This document shows, piece by piece, positions 3,959-13,309 of a DNA stretch of 13,309 nt. Origin of the DNA: a virus; UHGV virus genome UHGV-0148168; one strand, given 5' to 3'. The translations under genes were made by a program, and so were the position numbers. The notes under the pieces are model-generated. The model made no database searches. It had not been told where the DNA came from and was given only the letters and a program-made list of their open reading frames with translations. Positions within the stretch are counted from its first letter, which is position 1, and every line of letters starts with the position of its first letter.

Positions 3959-4801
3959 TTAATCAACTGCTATTGGATGAATAGCATTAAACTTATGAAA
4001 TGCTTCTGATTTTTCTTTACGCGAAACACACATGCGAAGAACCTTTAATGGTTCATCTTCTTCACCCAACGATTTTCGTTTTTCAATATTAGAAGTTTTC
4101 CAACGAGCTTGCTCTGGAAACTCTCTATTGATTTGCTCAAGCGCTCTATTATGTTTAGAATTACTACGAATTGAACTACATCCACCGGGAGCGTGTGATT
4201 TTCCAGATACAACTAGATATTTGAACAAGGCCAAATGCGGATAACCTTGATTAATTAAATTGAGAAATGCATACATATCTTCGCATAAATCAATTTTTCC
4301 ATACCCAATTTGTTCTGTCGTAAGTTTTCCGAGGTCATACCATGTATTCGTGAATCCATATGAGTTTTCACGATAATTACCCCAAGATGAAGTAATTTTA
4401 AAAATTGGTAGACGAGCATGACCGTGATAATACCCGCAATCCATGGCATCTTCAACATATTGAATCAATTCATAGAACTGTTCACGAGTTAATTGATTAA
4501 TTTTATCTACGCGCCGTTTATCGTCTCTCTTTCGTATTGAACTCATACGAATAGTAGTATCATCATCAATCATCCATATTCGTTGACCTGCATACATATC
4601 AGTAATTGCTTTACGAGTACCGGAAATTCCATTAACATCATCAGGAATAGTTACAATTTTAGCTCTAGACCCATAAGCATCATAATAAGCTTTTTCTTCG
4701 TGTTCACGCACTACAATATGGGGTTCATAATCAGTCGGAAACATATCAAGGGCAGAAACTGCCCCTACACGCTGATAACTTGGAATTACGAATTGAATCA
4801 T
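3959..4801 (-). CDS. Putative DNA-modifying glycosyltransferase of GT-A type, 280 aa, at the locus where T4 carries beta-glucosyltransferase
   Basis: N-terminal FVIPSYQR followed about 75 residues later by WMIDDD (DxD) is the GT-A fold signature. T4 beta-gt is 351 aa and GT-B, and does not resemble this. Placement between uvsX and gene 42 suggests a hydroxymethylcytosine glucosylation enzyme such as the T2/T6-type beta-glucosyl-HMC-alpha-glucosyltransferase (uncertain recall). Confidence 0.5.
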   Translation of the reverse strand: MIQFVIPSYQRVGAVSALDMFPTDYEPHIVVREHEEKAYYDAYGSRAKIVTIPDDVNGISGTRKAITDMYAGQRIWMIDDDTTIRMSSIRKRDDKRRVDKINQLTREQFYELIQYVEDAMDCGYYHGHARLPIFKITSSWGNYRENSYGFTNTWYDLGKLTTEQIGYGKIDLCEDMYAFLNLINQGYPHLALFKYLVVSGKSHAPGGCSSIRSNSKHNRALEQINREFPEQARWKTSNIEKRKSLGEEDEPLKVLRMCVSRKEKSEAFHKFNAIHPIAVD

Positions 4802-5439
4802 TTAAGTGCCTTACATTTGTCAAAATGGTATCTTGTCATATTTGGCCCACGTCCTTTTAGTCCGCAATGCGGACATATTTTTTCTATCAAATTATGAGGT
4901 TTTCCTTTACGATTTTTAGACATCGTTTCTTTAATTATTTTAGCTTTTTCTGCGCCAAAAATTTCTTCATAAGTTTTACCAGAATTTTCCTTTGCTCGAT
5001 TTATAATTCCATATGCCTGCTCATTTTTACCATACATTGGATTACCTTCGCCTTTCATTCTTTTAGAATGATCAGGACGCTTGATTCCACGAAAGGCATT
5101 TCCGCACTTATATCTTTCTTCTGGAGATAGTTTTTTACCGTACATTCCATTTAATTTGCCTGGAAAACTTCCTCCCCATGCTTCATTCTTTAAATTATAT
5201 GAATCCGGACAATTAGCAGCATCTAAACAAGTTAAAATAATTTCTTCAACCTGTCTAAACATTGGTCCTTCATATAATATTTCTTTATTAAAGGATTTTA
5301 TTCCATATTTCTTTTTAGCATGTTGCCAAACTACACCCGAACCATCATAATTTGGGTTGTGACCATCATGACTTCCTATATACCACTTTTTAGTTTTAGG
5401 ATGTTTATACTTATAAACATGTGGCACATTTACTTCCAT
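4798..5439 (-). CDS. GIY-YIG family homing endonuclease (Seg-like), 213 aa, with NUMOD-like repeats and a C-terminal CxxC zinc-finger-like motif
   Basis: N-terminal VYKYKHPKTKKWYIGS fits the GIY...YIG motif. Repeated G-x-YGK/basic modules (NGMYGKK, NPMYGKN) and C-terminal CPHCG...DKC. The start overlaps the gene 42 end by 10 nt and the stop overlaps the glycosyltransferase start (ATGA), with no own promoter; typical of free-standing phage homing-endonuclease genes. Confidence 0.7.
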   Translation of the reverse strand: MEVNVPHVYKYKHPKTKKWYIGSHDGHNPNYDGSGVVWQHAKKKYGIKSFNKEILYEGPMFRQVEEIILTCLDAANCPDSYNLKNEAWGGSFPGKLNGMYGKKLSPEERYKCGNAFRGIKRPDHSKRMKGEGNPMYGKNEQAYGIINRAKENSGKTYEEIFGAEKAKIIKETMSKNRKGKPHNLIEKICPHCGLKGRGPNMTRYHFDKCKALK

Positions 5440-6170
5440 TTTCCAGTATAATCCTTTTTAGCAATATGAGTTTCACCAGTGTTCCACCAATGGTCAACTA
5501 AATAAAACTGATTTTCGTACACATGAAGACTTCCAACGTTCCATATAATAGAACCTGCTTTATATTGCCGCGATGGGTCGCCTGCATTCAAATCAGATAC
5601 TAATTTATCTAGTACGTATTTTTGCCATGCATAATCATTACGATAGCCTGCCCAGCAGTCATTGCTTCTCATATTAACAACTGCATTGACTTTCTTATCA
5701 CGAATCAGGTACTGTACTGTATTAGTACACATGAAATCTGACATACCATCTTTATTGTAGTCAAATTGCATGGATGGACGAGTATAAATCATGATACCAC
5801 GTCGAGAATCAGGATTTTGACCAAGTTCAGCTAAACACATATCATACTGGGCATAGTTATCTTCTGACCAGATAGCCCAGCCATAATTCGAGTTAATTTC
5901 ACCTTTAGAAGATGCTACTTGTTGCCAAATCTTCGGTGTTTCACCCGGAATATCTTTAACGAACAAGCTCTTAGATTTATACCATTCAAGTTCACGCTGA
6001 ATGTATTCATCATTAAGAGCGCCAAAAATAAACGGTTCATCTGCTACAAATGATGCGCCAATAATTTCAATAGTTTTAACGCCAGTTTTATCAACTACGA
6101 AATCTTTTTCTTTTAATGCAAGCCCCAAATGAAGACGGATTTCTTCAACTGTCATAGAGTCATTAATCAT
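5430..6170 (-). CDS. 42: Gene 42 dCMP hydroxymethylase (thymidylate-synthase fold), 246 aa
   Basis: Length 246 aa equals T4 gp42. The sequence matches my recollection of T4 dCMP hydroxymethylase, including the FMCTNT region carrying the catalytic cysteine. GAGG Shine-Dalgarno before the ATG. Confidence 0.85.
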   Translation of the reverse strand: MINDSMTVEEIRLHLGLALKEKDFVVDKTGVKTIEIIGASFVADEPFIFGALNDEYIQRELEWYKSKSLFVKDIPGETPKIWQQVASSKGEINSNYGWAIWSEDNYAQYDMCLAELGQNPDSRRGIMIYTRPSMQFDYNKDGMSDFMCTNTVQYLIRDKKVNAVVNMRSNDCWAGYRNDYAWQKYVLDKLVSDLNAGDPSRQYKAGSIIWNVGSLHVYENQFYLVDHWWNTGETHIAKKDYTGKWK

Positions 6171-7144: not shown

Positions 7145-9841
7145 TCAGCCAAACAGGAAGTCTAACGAAGCTTTTTCCTCATAATCCATACCAGCCGATT
7201 CACACATACCCGCAAGCGGTTTAACAAACGATTTTTGGAACAAAGTTGAGTAGTCAATCCAAGATAGTACATCAGAACGAATTTCTTTTGGAAGTTCTGT
7301 GCCCGACGGCCAAGCAATGCACTTGTCACCAAATGGATTTCCTTCACGCAATGGAAGAACCATTACCTTATTTCCATCCAAAATTGGAGCTACACCTAGA
7401 CCACTAACAGCTCGACGATAAGTTAGCACACCGCGAATATGGAACGGGCATTTAAATCCTGGCCAACCTTTATCATCATATTTCGCTATATCGTTCGCAG
7501 TTTTTACTTCAGCAATAACTTTATAGTCGAGTTGACGATATTCTTTCTCAAAGTTCTTGTAGTATTCTTGGACAGACTCTTCACCTTCCTGAAGAATACG
7601 ACGAATACTTTCTTCGAGAGCTTCTTGCACTGCTTTTGGTGTTGAACTCTGCTGAGTTTCCATGCCCATGATTTTTAGATGCGGTTCAGCAAATCGCTTA
7701 TCTTCCATATCATAAACGTTCAGAGCATAACGTTTTTTCGCTTTCCAAAATCCACCAACACCCTTTGAACCAAGCGGAGGGCAAGAAATAGCTTCACGGT
7801 CCATATGCATCAGATGCTCGCGATTATTCATATAATCACATAACTCACGATATGCAACATCAATCATAGGTTCCATCTTTTTCTTACCAAACTGATTCAT
7901 GAATTCAACTAAATCATTTTGTTCTTTAAAGCGGTCAAGACCTACTTTTTCAATTACTTTATCTACACAAACATATACCGAATCAGTATCACCTGCTGCA
8001 ATGAAATCTTCATCATTAGTTCCGCATACTTTATTCAGATATTCATTAATTTTACGAGCAATCCACTGAATACCGACTTGGCCAAAAATTGTGATAGCAG
8101 TAGCATTTCGCAAATCATAGTAACGGAAATGAATATTACCAAGAGCACCATAAAGACTGTTAATAAGAATTTTACGGTTTAGCTGATTTGTATTAGCAAG
8201 TGTAGCCGCTTTTTCACATTCTTCAATCAGACTATTGAGAACAGATTCAGTATAATTCGATAGTTCATTTAAGAAATCATCACTGAACTTAACATATCGT
8301 TCAACTTCTGGTTTAGTTGAACAAGACCCTGCGCCTTTCATAATAATCTTTTTAATAGCTTCGGCATTCATTTCTTCAGCGAACATTTTCTTTTTCCAAT
8401 CTTTACGCTGGAAAAATACTTTAGCGATTTCCTTTGGAATGATACCTTCTTGATGCTTATCATACATCCATCCATTCGGAGAACAAGAATATTCATCACT
8501 CGGTTTAGGAGCTGTTCCTGCGATATATTCATGAATTGGATGAACTTTAAACTGCCCACGAATAGTCTCAGGACTAATGTTAACCTGACGAATAATGCTC
8601 GGATACAGAGACGTCAAGTCAAAACTCATAATATATCGACGAGCAATTGGTTTAGGTTCAAACACAAATGCACCCGGAAAACTCTGTTTAACGTGCGAAC
8701 CTTGTTGAGGAATAACCTTATGTTCACCTTTCAATGAGTTAAAAATAATAGCATCCCAAGTTTTAATAGGACTCATTACACCGGAAAAAGGCATTTTAGC
8801 GTAATAAGACATACTTAAAACTAGATCGATAAACCCACGAATTTTATCAATTGCTTGAACTGATTCTACGTCAATGATGTTATAACTAATGTATCGTTGA
8901 TGATTAGTCTCACGAAGTTTATTAATAGGACCGTCGTATGGTAATTTACCTTTTTTGGTTTCATGCTGAGCAACTGATTCCAAAGAGAATGACGGCAAAT
9001 TAGTAAAAGCGAATTTCTTGTACAAATCTAAATAATCAAGAATAGATACGCCATCAATAGAATAAATTTCTTTGCTACCGTACATATTTTGAATTAGTTT
9101 AGATTTTACCCGACCGATTGGAGAGAAGCGTTTCATACTACGTTCGCCCAGAATCATTTTAACACGATTCATGATATACGGAACGTCAAACCCCTCAATA
9201 TTCCAACCGGTAAAAATAGCAGGTCGTTTCTGTTCCCAGAGATTGATATATTCCATGAGCATATCACGCTCATTATCGAATGGCATATAAATTACTCTGT
9301 CAAGAATTTCTTGAGGAACTTCATCACCACCTTCACAGTCAAGCTTAGCAGCTAACTTTGCATCCCATTTTGATACTGAACCGTACATTGAATTCAAAAG
9401 GTCGAAAACATAAAAACGATCGTCAATTGAATCATAATGAGTGATAGCATCAATTTCATATTCAGCTTTCATTGGGTCAGGAAATTTATCACCAGTAACC
9501 TCAATATCACAGTTAGCTACACGAACAAATTTTCGGTCATAAACAATTTCTGAACCATACGTATCACTGATATAAGCGAGTTTAAAATCGTTCATACCAA
9601 GAGCTTCGAGACCGATGTCTTCCATTCGCTTCATCCAATCTCGAGCATCTTTCATTGATTGAAATTTTTGAGGAGCGCAATTTTTACCATAAATGTCTTT
9701 GTACTTTGACTCTTCCTTACAATGCCTAAACATAGTCGGAAGATATTCTACTTCACGAGTACGTTCCTTTCCGTTTTCATCAATATAACGTTCAACAATG
9801 TTATTTCCGACTGTTTCGATAGAGATATAAAATTCTTTCAT
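7145..9841 (-). CDS. 43: Gene 43 DNA polymerase (family B, with 3'-5' exonuclease), 898 aa
   Basis: 898 aa equals T4 gp43. N-terminus MKEFYISIETVGNNIVERYIDENGKERTREVEY matches my recollection of T4 gp43. Exo I motif CDIEV, pol motif A DLTSLYPS, motif B KILINSLYGALG, motif C GDTDS. Confidence 0.96.
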   Translation of the reverse strand: MKEFYISIETVGNNIVERYIDENGKERTREVEYLPTMFRHCKEESKYKDIYGKNCAPQKFQSMKDARDWMKRMEDIGLEALGMNDFKLAYISDTYGSEIVYDRKFVRVANCDIEVTGDKFPDPMKAEYEIDAITHYDSIDDRFYVFDLLNSMYGSVSKWDAKLAAKLDCEGGDEVPQEILDRVIYMPFDNERDMLMEYINLWEQKRPAIFTGWNIEGFDVPYIMNRVKMILGERSMKRFSPIGRVKSKLIQNMYGSKEIYSIDGVSILDYLDLYKKFAFTNLPSFSLESVAQHETKKGKLPYDGPINKLRETNHQRYISYNIIDVESVQAIDKIRGFIDLVLSMSYYAKMPFSGVMSPIKTWDAIIFNSLKGEHKVIPQQGSHVKQSFPGAFVFEPKPIARRYIMSFDLTSLYPSIIRQVNISPETIRGQFKVHPIHEYIAGTAPKPSDEYSCSPNGWMYDKHQEGIIPKEIAKVFFQRKDWKKKMFAEEMNAEAIKKIIMKGAGSCSTKPEVERYVKFSDDFLNELSNYTESVLNSLIEECEKAATLANTNQLNRKILINSLYGALGNIHFRYYDLRNATAITIFGQVGIQWIARKINEYLNKVCGTNDEDFIAAGDTDSVYVCVDKVIEKVGLDRFKEQNDLVEFMNQFGKKKMEPMIDVAYRELCDYMNNREHLMHMDREAISCPPLGSKGVGGFWKAKKRYALNVYDMEDKRFAEPHLKIMGMETQQSSTPKAVQEALEESIRRILQEGEESVQEYYKNFEKEYRQLDYKVIAEVKTANDIAKYDDKGWPGFKCPFHIRGVLTYRRAVSGLGVAPILDGNKVMVLPLREGNPFGDKCIAWPSGTELPKEIRSDVLSWIDYSTLFQKSFVKPLAGMCESAGMDYEEKASLDFLFG

Positions 9842-10854: not shown

Positions 10855-11814
10855 TCACTTCCACTGCATTTCACATGCCAATTGAATGAAAAGATATGCT
10901 AAATGTAATTCCGTATTAGCCGCAATTCCATGATACTGATTATTTTCACCAACAATTTCATACATACGAATAATACTTTGCGGAGTTACACGTGAATAGA
11001 TTTCTTCGGCAAGTTTACCCACGAACCACGAATAATCAGCTGCATATTTTGGTGCTAAAGCTCTGAGTTGTTTAACATCTTTATTTTTGAGAGACTCAAG
11101 AACATCATCAATAGCACCACGATCGTTAGTAACCAGTGATAAAATACCAGCATCCAAAACACCTTTAGATGAATAACTATCGAGCTCGCCAATAGTTTTA
11201 CGAAAATCAGGAAAATTCTTTTTAACCAAAGCTGCTACAACTTTCATATCAGCTATAGCAATTCCTTCATGCTTGCAGATTTCAGTCAATCGACGAATCA
11301 TCTGCTTCATCATTTCAATTTTATCTTCATCGGTCGGTTGACCGAATGTAATAACTCGGCAGCGTGACTGAAGTGGTTTAATAATACCATCAATATTGTT
11401 AGCAGTAATAATAATACTACAGTTTGAACTATAAGCTTCCATAAAGGAACGAAGATGTCGCTGAGACTCTGCTAACCCTGAGCGGTCAAATTCATCAATA
11501 ACGATTACTTTTTGACGACCATCAAATGAAGCTGCACTAGCAAAATTAGTCAAAGGACCACGAACGAAATCAATTTTACAGTCTGATCCATTCACAAACA
11601 TCATATCAGCATTTACATCATGACACAATGCTTTTGCTACAGTTGTTTTACCTGTTCCTGGAGAAGGAGAATGAAGAATAATATGTGGAATCTTACCTTT
11701 ACTTGTAATAGATTTAAAGGTTTCTTTATCAAAGGCGGGAAGAATACATTCATCGATAGTAGATGGACGATATTTCTGTTCAAGAATGTGTTCTTTTTCA
11801 TTTACGGTAATCAT
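10855..11814 (-). CDS. 44: Gene 44 clamp-loader ATPase (AAA+, RFC-like), 319 aa from the ATG at 11814 (the track's version starts at a TTG at 11829)
   Basis: Walker [11 protein letters not shown], Walker B VIDEFD, SRC motif LQSRCR. From the ATG the protein begins [17 protein letters not shown] and is 319 aa, as in T4 gp44. GAGGAAA Shine-Dalgarno before the ATG. Confidence 0.92.
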
Positions 11815-11848
11815 AATTTCCTCATTCAAGTTTTAGTGTAAATTATAA

Positions 11849-11862
11849 AGGGCCGAAGCCCT
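11849..11862 (-). other. UUCG-tetraloop hairpin AGGGC-UUCG-GCCCU (extendable to 7 bp with a G-U pair), 3 nt after the gene 45 stop codon
   Basis: Plus 11849..11853 agggc, 11854..11857 cgaa, 11858..11862 gccct. On the mRNA it reads AGAGGGCUUCGGCCCUUU and is followed directly by UAUAAU (11847..11842), then the gene 44 Shine-Dalgarno. Confidence 0.7.
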
Positions 11863-11865
11863 CTA

Positions 11866-12552
11866 TTAAAAATCATGGGTAGAATCAGCTTCAAGAGCTA
11901 CTACATAATTCGCATGTTCACCTTCAAATTTAGCAGCGCCTTGTTTACCTTTTGCCCAGAGCAGAAGTTTATAATTTCCTGGTTGCATTTTCATATTTGC
12001 CATATTGATAATGAAATTAAATGTATTTTCACCATCGTAATCACCAAGAGTCAAAGAATATTTAACACGTGTCAAAGCAGAATCTTCTACTTTATTAAAA
12101 CCGTTAATTACGATTTTACCTTCTTTTACCGTGATAGCAATTGTATCAATTTGCAGACCACGAGATACACGCAACAGCTGTTGAAGGTCTTCAGCTTTAA
12201 TTTCGGTAACAACAGATGCTACCGGGAATGGAATTGGTTTATTAGGAGCAACTACTGTACTCGGATCGGCTGCTGGCCAAAAAATTGTTGAGCGTGCATC
12301 AGCAATTTTAATATTTCCATCTTCTGACTGGGAAATTTCTGCATCATCATTAACTAGAGACAGAATACCGAGAAAACCGTTCAAATCGTAAATTGCTACA
12401 TCAAAATCAATAACGTCAGAAATATTTGCTTCCGCATAAGTTGTACCATTAACTGCGCGAGTCATAATAAATTGACCTGATTTAAGCATAATGCCAGAGT
12501 TAATAGTAGCGAAATTTTTCAAAATATTCAGTGTGTCTTTAGATAATTTCAT
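11866..12552 (-). CDS. 45: Gene 45 sliding clamp (PCNA-like processivity factor), 228 aa
   Basis: 228 aa equals T4 gp45 and the N-terminus MKLSKDTLNILKNFATINSG matches my recollection. Sits upstream of 44/62 as in T4. The ATG overlaps the stop of the upstream ORF (ATGA). Confidence 0.9.
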   Translation of the reverse strand: MKLSKDTLNILKNFATINSGIMLKSGQFIMTRAVNGTTYAEANISDVIDFDVAIYDLNGFLGILSLVNDDAEISQSEDGNIKIADARSTIFWPAADPSTVVAPNKPIPFPVASVVTEIKAEDLQQLLRVSRGLQIDTIAITVKEGKIVINGFNKVEDSALTRVKYSLTLGDYDGENTFNFIINMANMKMQPGNYKLLLWAKGKQGAAKFEGEHANYVVALEADSTHDF

Positions 12553-13260
12553 TTCAATTTCCTATTTACATAATAGTTAGACCAGGACCGTACAGCACCC
12601 TGATAAGATTCGTCGTTAAACCCATTAGCTACTGCAATTTTACGAAATTTATTATAACTCGGTTTTCCGTAAGCATGCCATAAAGATTTTAATTCATCTT
12701 CATGTTCAATCCAAGTTCCTCTAGCTTTAGATTTTCTAAATTTTGATTTGAATTCCGGTAAATTATTTCTAACAGTTGCTTGAATTGAAGCTCTCTGTCT
12801 TCTTTCAGCATTATTCCATAACTCTTTTTGAGATTTAGAAATTTTTGATCTTACACTTTCTGAATTCATTATATCACTAAACTTTTTAGCATAACTACAA
12901 TCAAGATATTTCAATTTCATCTTATTTGAAAGTTTAAGCTTTTTCTCATCGGTCCAGTGATTCTTCATTGAATTAGATATTTTGTATTTTACGTCAGAAC
13001 TATGTTTGTAACCTTTACGAATACCAACATAATCGGGCGTGATTTCAGATTGCGAAAGCTTTACAATTTTTCCAGTTAAAACATTTTTATATGTTCCATA
13101 TCCTTTAGCGCCAATTAAAGTATTTTCATCTGCGTATGCTTTATTAAAATATTTTATATTACTTTTTGCTTTAACTTTTAATTGAAAAAATCTTTCCAAT
13201 TTTCTTGGATCTAATATAGTTTCAGCTAAAATTTTGACGGTATATTTAGTGGTTTTAATA
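12549..13260 (-). CDS. 5'-truncated ORF (at least 236 aa in the window) encoding a lysine-rich protein with NUMOD3-like repeats; probable homing-endonuclease DNA-binding region. The N-terminus lies beyond the window.
   Basis: Motifs YKHSSDVKYKISNSMKNHW and SESVRSKISKSQKELW resemble the NUMOD3 module of I-TevI (HKHSDITKSKISEKMKGKK, as I recall it). The ORF runs open into the adapter; the track's first six residues MCIRDS are translated from adapter sequence. The stop overlaps the gene 45 ATG. Confidence 0.5.
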
Positions 13261-13309
13261 CTGTCTCTTATACACATCTGACGCTGCCGACGACTCCTTA
13301 CGTGTAGAT
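13261..13309. other. Synthetic Illumina Nextera adapter (reverse complement of read-1 transposase adapter CTGTCTCTTATACACATCTGACGCTGCCGACGA, 8-nt index CTCCTTAC, start of P5 GTGTAGAT). Not phage sequence.
   Basis: 13261..13293 is an exact match, by eye, to the reverse complement of TCGTCGGCAGCGTCAGATGTGTATAAGAGACAG. The following 8 nt and GTGTAGAT fit the i5 index and P5 tail. Confidence 0.95.

Follow-up and report, generated by a model that had tools for sequence, protein, structure and literature searches.

The Seg genes of bacteriophage T4 are promoter-less cassettes, and the characterized free-standing homing endonucleases of this phage usually cleave hundreds to thousands of base pairs (bp) from their own gene (PMC2988022). 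In the case of segG and gene 32, the endonuclease open reading frame (ORF) contains the promoters of the essential gene that follows it (PMC2988022), and SegG acts from a distant cleavage site, according to the title of Liu et al. (2003) cited in the same review. None of the T4 Seg genes listed in the table of that review is located between rpbA and gene 45 (PMC2988022). Here, the virus genome UHGV-0148168, a stretch of 13,309 nucleotides (nt) referred to below as the window, was identified as a contig of a Tequatrovirus (T4-like phage) with all genes on the minus strand, and the ORF immediately upstream of gene 45 was analyzed. The ORF is likely part of a selfish 295-amino-acid (aa) Seg-type free-standing GIY-YIG homing endonuclease that was inserted at the rpbA-45 junction and would home with a target at that junction. 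The gene is an uncharacterized but ordinary member of a well-known class.

Identity of the endonuclease gene fragment

The fragment, its predicted parts, and the features that delimit it were located as follows.

12549-13260, minus strand: 3' part of a free-standing homing endonuclease gene, comprising codons 60-295 of 295, the TGA stop, and one base of codon 59
13122-13259, minus strand: C-terminal half of the GIY-YIG nuclease domain, residues 60-105
13023-13100, minus strand: three-stranded beta module, residues 113-138, with the pattern Y.TYK...TGK..[R/K]L......YVG
12768-13004, minus strand: modular DNA-binding region of four tandem NUMOD3-like helices, with units at 12963-13004, 12915-12953, 12825-12866, and 12768-12812
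12552-12719, minus strand: C-terminal three-helix domain, residues 240-295, with AlphaFold helices at residues 246-255, 261-270, and 276-294
11866-12552, minus strand: gene 45, the essential sliding clamp gene (228 aa), from its translation and the annotation of matching records
13261-13309: Nextera adapter read-through, read directly from the sequence, which is not phage DNA and sets the contig edge

The minus-strand frame was uninterrupted from position 13259 down to the TGA at 12549-12551, which overlaps the ATG of gene 45 (12550-12552) as ATGA. It contains 236 phage-derived codons, or the C-terminal 80% of the protein, and residues 1-59 lie beyond the contig edge. The initial annotation of this DNA, which had described a lysine-rich ORF of at least 236 aa ending at the gene 45 ATG and open at the contig edge, was borne out on each of these points: the fragment is basic, with 16.5% lysine and with lysine and arginine at 22% vs 9% for aspartate and glutamate. 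An ORF call of 242 aa starts at an ATG at 13275-13277, inside the adapter. Its start codon is therefore an artefact, the real endonuclease gene runs off the contig with its frame open at the edge, and the call needs correction on this contig. The fragment is 99% identical to a full-length 295-aa protein (P0001), from which the missing residues could be read.

Sequence searches placed the protein among homing endonucleases. The PHROG family phrog_655, annotated as 'homing endonuclease', was matched with an E-value of 6.6e-33 by the full-length protein and 4.8e-29 by the fragment, and phrog_7504 matched the N-terminus (E = 5e-18). Residues 1-111 aligned with T4 SegG at 37% identity (BLASTP E = 5e-16; tblastn E = 1e-8), and an exhaustive profile search returned 228 related clusters. 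In an alignment of 103 sequences, Y5, Y22, G24, Y44, S47, E81, and N98 were invariant, a set that is, as judged from the aligned sequences, the GIY...YIG...E...N signature. The GIY motif is represented by V4-Y5, with Y5 present in all 102 sequences that have a residue at this column. Residues Y22-I23-G24 literally read YIG, where Y22 and G24 are invariant and I23 occurs in 101 of the 103 sequences. Together with the PHROG and SegG matches, these positions support the earlier description of the ORF as homing-endonuclease-like.

The same annotation had placed any catalytic domain beyond the contig edge. This holds for the first 59 residues, where the GIY (residues 4-5) and YIG (residues 22-24) motifs were seen in P0001 and in the full-length genes at loci L001, L002, and L006, and it fails for the second half of the domain, since Glu81 (13194-13196) and Asn98 (13143-13145) are both encoded within the window. 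By motif order and predicted secondary structure, E81 and N98 would correspond to Glu75 and Asn90 of I-TevI and are regarded as catalytic-type residues; they are intact in all orthologues.

In an AlphaFold model of the protein (mean pLDDT 87.9), an N-terminal alpha/beta domain was followed by the three-stranded beta module, by four long helices coinciding with the repeats, and by a three-helix domain at the C-terminus. The GIY-YIG alpha/beta fold was present in this predicted structure. Matches in BFVD included SegG, GIY-YIG/NUMOD, and 'SegE-like GIY-YIG' proteins, with E-values down to 1e-11 for a named SegG. The strands of the beta module (residues 113-118, 124-128, and 136-138) were modeled with pLDDT above 90, and its columns were well conserved in the alignment: position 126 is arginine in 93 of 103 sequences (lysine here), L127 occurs in 94, and G138 in 93. 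The module separates the nuclease domain from the helical repeats and is probably part of the linker and DNA-contact region. The C-terminal domain was strongly conserved across four orthologues and is presumed, from the model, to be a helix-turn-helix-like DNA-binding module. The resulting order of a SegG-like nuclease domain (residues 1-105), a beta module, four degenerate NUMOD3-type helices, and a three-helix domain is the modular plan of I-TevI and the Seg enzymes.

The initial annotation had reported two copies of an HS-x-x-x-K-x-KIS-x-x-x-K motif resembling NUMOD3. One copy, HSSDVKYKISNSMK (12963-13004), fits the pattern exactly, while the other, NSESVRSKISKSQK (12825-12866), fits at five of the seven specified positions, with N for H and R for K. 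Two more degenerate units were found, TDEKKLKLSNKMK (12915-12953) and NAERRQRASIQATVR (12768-12812), and all four units are predicted helices (residues 147-160, 163-178, 193-208, and 210-225 in the AlphaFold model). For the protein alone, the resemblance was not significant in Pfam: NUMOD3 (PF07460) scored 10.8 bits with the fragment (E = 0.51) and 13.0 bits with the full-length sequence (E = 0.1), below the gathering score of 20.4 bits. At the family level it was significant. Pfam NUMOD3 was found in 72 of the 103 relatives, with a best E-value of 1.7e-17, and the family profile matched the NUMOD3 helix in the DNA-binding domain of I-TevI (PDB 1I3J; E = 1.6e-4). An hhalign comparison of the family with I-TevI (E = 3.7e-5) placed the I-TevI NUMOD3 helix on residues 155-178; it recovered this helix only and not the catalytic domain. 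Additionally, a custom NUMOD3 HMM built from 12 canonical units of distant relatives scored 9.9 bits on the fragment, exceeding all 2,000 composition-preserving shuffles (maximum 8.7).

Several observations weigh against the assignment to GIY-YIG enzymes with NUMOD3 repeats. The thresholds of PF01541 and PF19835 were not reached by either the fragment or the full-length protein, for which Pfam returned sub-threshold matches only (DUF4476, DUF7132, and NUMOD3), and no NCBIfam model reached its threshold. There is no obvious counterpart to the canonical arginine that follows YIG in I-TevI (Arg27): the alignment has no conserved arginine between residues 27 and 65, and R12 (88 of 92 sequences) and K26 (102 of 103) are conserved instead. 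Moreover, most of the NUMOD3 signature has been lost from the orthologues P0003 and P0004. On the other hand, the experimentally characterized T4 SegG has no Pfam match either, so the failure of Pfam is uninformative, or of low power, for this clade; SegE_GIY-YIG (PF19835) was matched by 7 of the 103 family members. A phmmer search of PDB sequences gave a single spurious match to a GNAT acetyltransferase (E = 0.14). An HNH-type endonuclease was considered and rejected, as the HNH family appeared in no search and all fold and sequence matches were to GIY-YIG proteins.

Insertion site, distribution, and expression signals of gene 45

A megablast search with an 861-bp query returned complete matches at 97.4-99.3% identity in 25 GenBank Tequatrovirus records, and approximately 440 further records matched the gene 45 portion only. 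The rpbA-45 junction was uninterrupted in approximately 480 Tequatrovirus records vs the 25 carriers (about 5%). In the phages PaulHMueller, SHBML-50-1, and G10400, the gene has 888 bp (295 aa) and is located between an intact 129-aa rpbA and gene 45, with an ATGA overlap at each end, and an intact 129-aa rpbA was found immediately upstream of the endonuclease in every full-length relative examined. In T2, T6, RB10, AR1, and ime09, a 55-bp spacer between rpbA and gene 45 takes the place of the gene. Since rpbA is intact and only the 55-bp spacer was replaced, the event was an insertion and not a replacement of rpbA. The 129-aa rpbA that the initial annotation placed at this position in T4 was seen directly upstream of gene 45 in T2, T6, and other genomes without the gene, and of the two suggestions of that annotation for a strain-specific mobile gene beside the clamp gene, the sporadic insertion stood and the replacement did not.

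The insertion was also observed in other genera. Alleles with 55-62% identity occupy the identical site in the Mosigvirus strains FL31, AV118, and AV115 and in the Gaprivervirus strain VR26, and the site is empty in other members of both genera. Most copies in the three genera have an unbroken ORF of full length, and the ratio of nonsynonymous to synonymous substitution rates (dN/dS) among the Tequatrovirus copies ranges from 0.06 to 0.36, which indicates purifying selection. The gene is already labeled as a homing endonuclease in several RefSeq and GenBank records, and many 'hypothetical protein' labels at this position can be renamed. A literature search retrieved no paper describing an endonuclease gene at rpbA/45.

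Individual copies differ in detail. A frameshift in a poly-A tract interrupts the AV115 allele (locus L009, 1501-2395). In ESh24, the annotation divides the copy (P0002) into two ORFs, and its length differs from that of the query by 1 nt. Both may represent either decaying copies or homopolymer sequencing errors. The VR26 allele (locus L008, 1501-2388) is annotated from an internal start as a gene of 633 bp. When read from a GTG overlapping the end of rpbA, its frame stays open over all 295 codons, and the database annotation therefore looks truncated. The neighborhood also contains other variable inserts: in FL31, a gene annotated as a homing endonuclease lies on the opposite strand and abuts gene 46 (locus L007, 81-797), and T2 (L019, 6511-7363) and T6 (L020, 6496-7350) have extra hypothetical ORFs between gene 46 and gene 46.1, which are absent from the carriers examined.

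Two candidate expression signals of gene 45 were located at the 3' end of the inserted gene.

12550-12563, minus strand: gene 45 translation-initiation region derived from the cassette, with AGGAAA at 12558-12563, a 5-nt spacer, and the ATG at 12550-12552
12651-12676, minus strand: candidate MotA-dependent middle promoter for gene 45, ATGCTTAC-N12-TATAAT, identified by motif match only

The last codons of the endonuclease, N-R-K (AATAGGAAA), form the Shine-Dalgarno sequence of gene 45 and are conserved in all alleles, from which we infer that the endonuclease gene carries a replacement ribosome-binding site for gene 45. The candidate promoter starts 124-123 nt upstream of the gene 45 ATG (123 for the TGCTT core), within the endonuclease ORF. 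All alleles have a TGCTT box, a 12-nt spacer, and TAnnnT at that position, with the element reading ATTGCTTTA-N12-TATATT in Mosigvirus and AATGCTTTA-N12-TATATT in Gaprivervirus. The T2-type spacer holds a MotA-box-like element with a -10 sequence, TTGCTTTA-N10-TATAAAAT, which is lost in carriers, and the embedded element is probably a substitute middle promoter for gene 45, as its sequence and position suggest. Searches with the exact late-promoter pattern (TATAAATA) and the strict MotA-box pattern found nothing inside the endonuclease gene; the candidate was found after the last two MotA-box positions were relaxed and the alleles were compared. A scan of 11800-13260 for sigma-70 promoters and terminators showed no enrichment over shuffles.

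A 16-nt inverted repeat (12458-12473 and 12646-12661; 94% complementary) has one arm in gene 45 (nt ~80-95) and the other at the -10 region of the candidate promoter. It was considered as a regulatory hairpin and rejected: one arm is weakened by a substitution in PaulHMueller, and the repeat is therefore probably due to chance.

Candidate target site and competing explanations

The flanks of the insertion were compared between four Tequatrovirus genomes with the endonuclease and five without it, which delimited one further feature.

12522-12546, minus strand: recoded patch in gene 45, nt 7-31 (codons 3-11, TTALL to TLNIL), a candidate immunity or target-site difference

All 12 fixed differences in gene 45 fell within this patch, and those in rpbA were confined to the last codon and stop (CGTTAA to AAATGA). 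When flanking sequence of 2.3 kb upstream and 2.6 kb downstream was included (about 5 kb with 315 variable sites), the single addition was gene 45 nt 60, which was fixed only in a smaller comparison of three genomes. The patch was present in all 25 carrier records. A replicate in Mosigvirus gave 15 fixed differences, all at gene 45 nt 9-45, and the sequence of the patch was different. Endonuclease-less genomes of Tequatrovirus and Mosigvirus have in common the sequence ATGAAACTGTCTAAAGATACTA at the start of gene 45. The pattern of fixed differences was asymmetric, in that it was seen on the gene 45 side but not on the rpbA side. Such a one-sided and boundary-limited pattern is expected from repeated break repair at the junction, and the target is therefore predicted within the replaced or recoded ~90 bp. 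From these comparisons we infer that the rpbA-45 junction is the cleavage target.

In the mechanism proposed here, the promoter-less cassette would have taken the place of the 55-bp rpbA-45 spacer. During mixed infection with an endonuclease-less T4-like phage, the enzyme would bind an extended site and make a double-strand break within a ~90-bp segment that extends from the rpbA stop through the spacer to gene 45 nt 31, around ATGAAACTGTCTAAAGATACTA. For SegB, one report gives mostly 2-nt 3' overhangs as the cleavage product (PMC2330249). Phage recombination-dependent repair with the carrier genome as the template would then transfer the endonuclease gene together with the neighboring patch at the 5' end of gene 45, and the outcome would be intronless homing with local marker exclusion. 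The carrier itself would be immune because the spacer is gone and gene 45 codons 3-11 (nt 7-31) are recoded.

The distribution of the patch among endonuclease-less genomes complicates this proposal. Three gene 45 5' alleles were found among them, of which the T2 type accounts for approximately 85%. Genomes of the Lutter type (47 records) show recoding of nt 21-31 only, and RPN226 and LH2 have the full carrier-type recoding with an intact T2-type spacer; all of these count against the proposal. RPN226 and LH2 are possibly resistant empty sites or loss derivatives. Since the patch is found where the endonuclease is missing, it could be a pre-existing allele that hitch-hiked with the insertion, and because the characterized free-standing T4 enzymes usually cut far away (PMC2988022), a target within ~30-90 bp of the gene would be atypical.

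These points lead to a possible though less favored explanation, in which an active GIY-YIG endonuclease has a target at least hundreds of bp away, or one not set by local differences, and the nt 7-31 patch is merely a hitch-hiking donor allele. The distant cleavage by characterized free-standing T4 endonucleases (PMC2988022) and the occurrence of the patch without the endonuclease both fit this explanation, and tight linkage would be expected in any case for a patch only 7-31 nt from the insert. However, three features speak against it: the lack of other fixed differences over 2.3 kb upstream and, nt 60 of the three-genome sample aside, over 2.6 kb downstream, the independent origin of the same boundary-limited pattern in Mosigvirus with a different patch sequence, and the presence of differences on the gene 45 side with none on the rpbA side. 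An unlikely alternative is that the gene is a decaying or inactive remnant that no longer homes and is kept because its deletion would remove the gene 45 ribosome-binding site and probably its promoter. The degenerate NUMOD3 units (Pfam E = 0.1-0.5), the frameshifted copies in ESh24 and AV115, which also speak against a functional endonuclease, and the carriage by only ~5% of Tequatrovirus records would agree with decay. Similarly, the gene 45 Shine-Dalgarno sequence and the candidate promoter are inside the ORF, an arrangement argued in the T4 review to favor retention (PMC2988022). In contrast, the dN/dS values between copies point to selection on the protein, the catalytic-type residues are intact in all orthologues, most copies in three genera retain the full ORF, and expression signals alone would not preserve 295 codons.

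The ORF might also be read as an RpbA variant, an RpbA fusion, a replacement for RpbA, or some other DNA-binding protein without nuclease function, but this is highly improbable and was refuted by the lack of similarity to RpbA and the intact rpbA of the relatives. Its position directly upstream of gene 45, as for rpbA in T4, and its basic, lysine-rich composition would be compatible with such a protein. However, it has no similarity to RpbA (BLASTP E = 25), for which homology was rejected, all full-length relatives retain an intact rpbA upstream of the gene, and GIY-YIG endonucleases are what its fold and its sequence match. The initial annotation had named an alignment to RpbA and a motif without significance in a profile search as results that would overturn its proposal; the former was not obtained, and the latter was true of Pfam with the single protein and untrue of the family.

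The junction-targeting endonuclease remains the preferred reading. As a more tentative extension, which is rather doubtful at present, this lineage may target the translation-initiation region of the clamp gene at its own insertion junction and resist deletion through the embedded ribosome-binding site and MotA-type promoter. An ongoing homing cycle would then run in parallel in three genera of the Tevenvirinae, and the T2-, Lutter-, and RPN226-type alleles would represent its sensitive, partly resistant, and resistant states, respectively.

Other genes of the window and comparison with known endonucleases

Gene order in the window places regA, 62, and 44 between gene 45 and the following gene.

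7145-9841, minus strand: gene 43

A second candidate for a free-standing homing endonuclease, of 213 aa, was found at 4798-5439 on the minus strand, with a match to phrog_314 'homing endonuclease' (E = 1.8e-31) and to NUMOD3 (E = 0.0026). It is located between gene 42 (5430-6170) and a transferase gene (3959-4801), overlapping both, and its sequence is not significantly similar to that of the rpbA/45 endonuclease. The transferase gene, a 280-aa ORF on the minus strand, matches beta-glucosyl-HMC-alpha-glucosyltransferase (phrog_842, E = 2e-87) and not the T4 beta-glucosyltransferase, which suggests a T2/T6-type gentiobiosyl DNA modification. A search of the whole window with Rfam gave no matches, and PADLOC returned nothing.

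Untrimmed Illumina Nextera adapter was also present at the other end of the contig (positions 1-49). We take its parts to be the P7 tail, an index CTAGTACG, GTCTCGTGGGCTCGG, and then the mosaic end, and those at 13261-13309 to be the mosaic end, GACGCTGCCGACGA, an i5 index CTCCTTAC, and then the P5 start.

The understanding of homing endonucleases is unchanged by this gene, which adds an uncharacterized member of the Seg family at a site (rpbA/45) outside the T4 sites of the 2010 review (PMC2988022). The natural occurrence of sensitive and candidate-resistant alleles, with independent alleles in three genera, would make it a convenient system for homing cycles and local marker exclusion, and the target prediction is concrete and cheap to test.

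Among described endonucleases, T4 SegG, the product of gene 32.1 between genes 59 and 32, is the closest characterized relative of the nuclease domain. Both are encoded by promoter-less cassettes that directly precede, and share the orientation of, an essential replication gene whose expression signals lie inside the endonuclease ORF. They differ in insertion site (rpbA/45 here, 59/32 for segG), in length (295 aa here, 210 aa for SegG), and in the DNA-binding region, which is unrelated and shows no significant similarity past residue 111. In addition, SegG is reported to act from a distant cleavage site, whereas the target here is predicted at the insertion junction. I-TevI, the structural reference, which is encoded in the T4 td intron (PDB 1LN0 and 1I3J), shares the NUMOD3-type minor-groove helix and the overall design of a nuclease, a linker, and a modular DNA-binding region, with only 22% identity over the aligned core. 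Unlike the intron-encoded I-TevI, the gene described here is free-standing, and its product has no zinc-finger cysteines and has four helical repeats instead of one helix. The motif tyrosines Y5 and Y22 are 17 residues apart, compared with a spacing that we take to be 11 residues in I-TevI. SegA-F, SegH, and the SegE_GIY-YIG family (PF19835) belong to the same superfamily and share the biology of intronless homing, while T4 RpbA, a 129-aa RNA-polymerase-binding protein, shares only the position upstream of gene 45.

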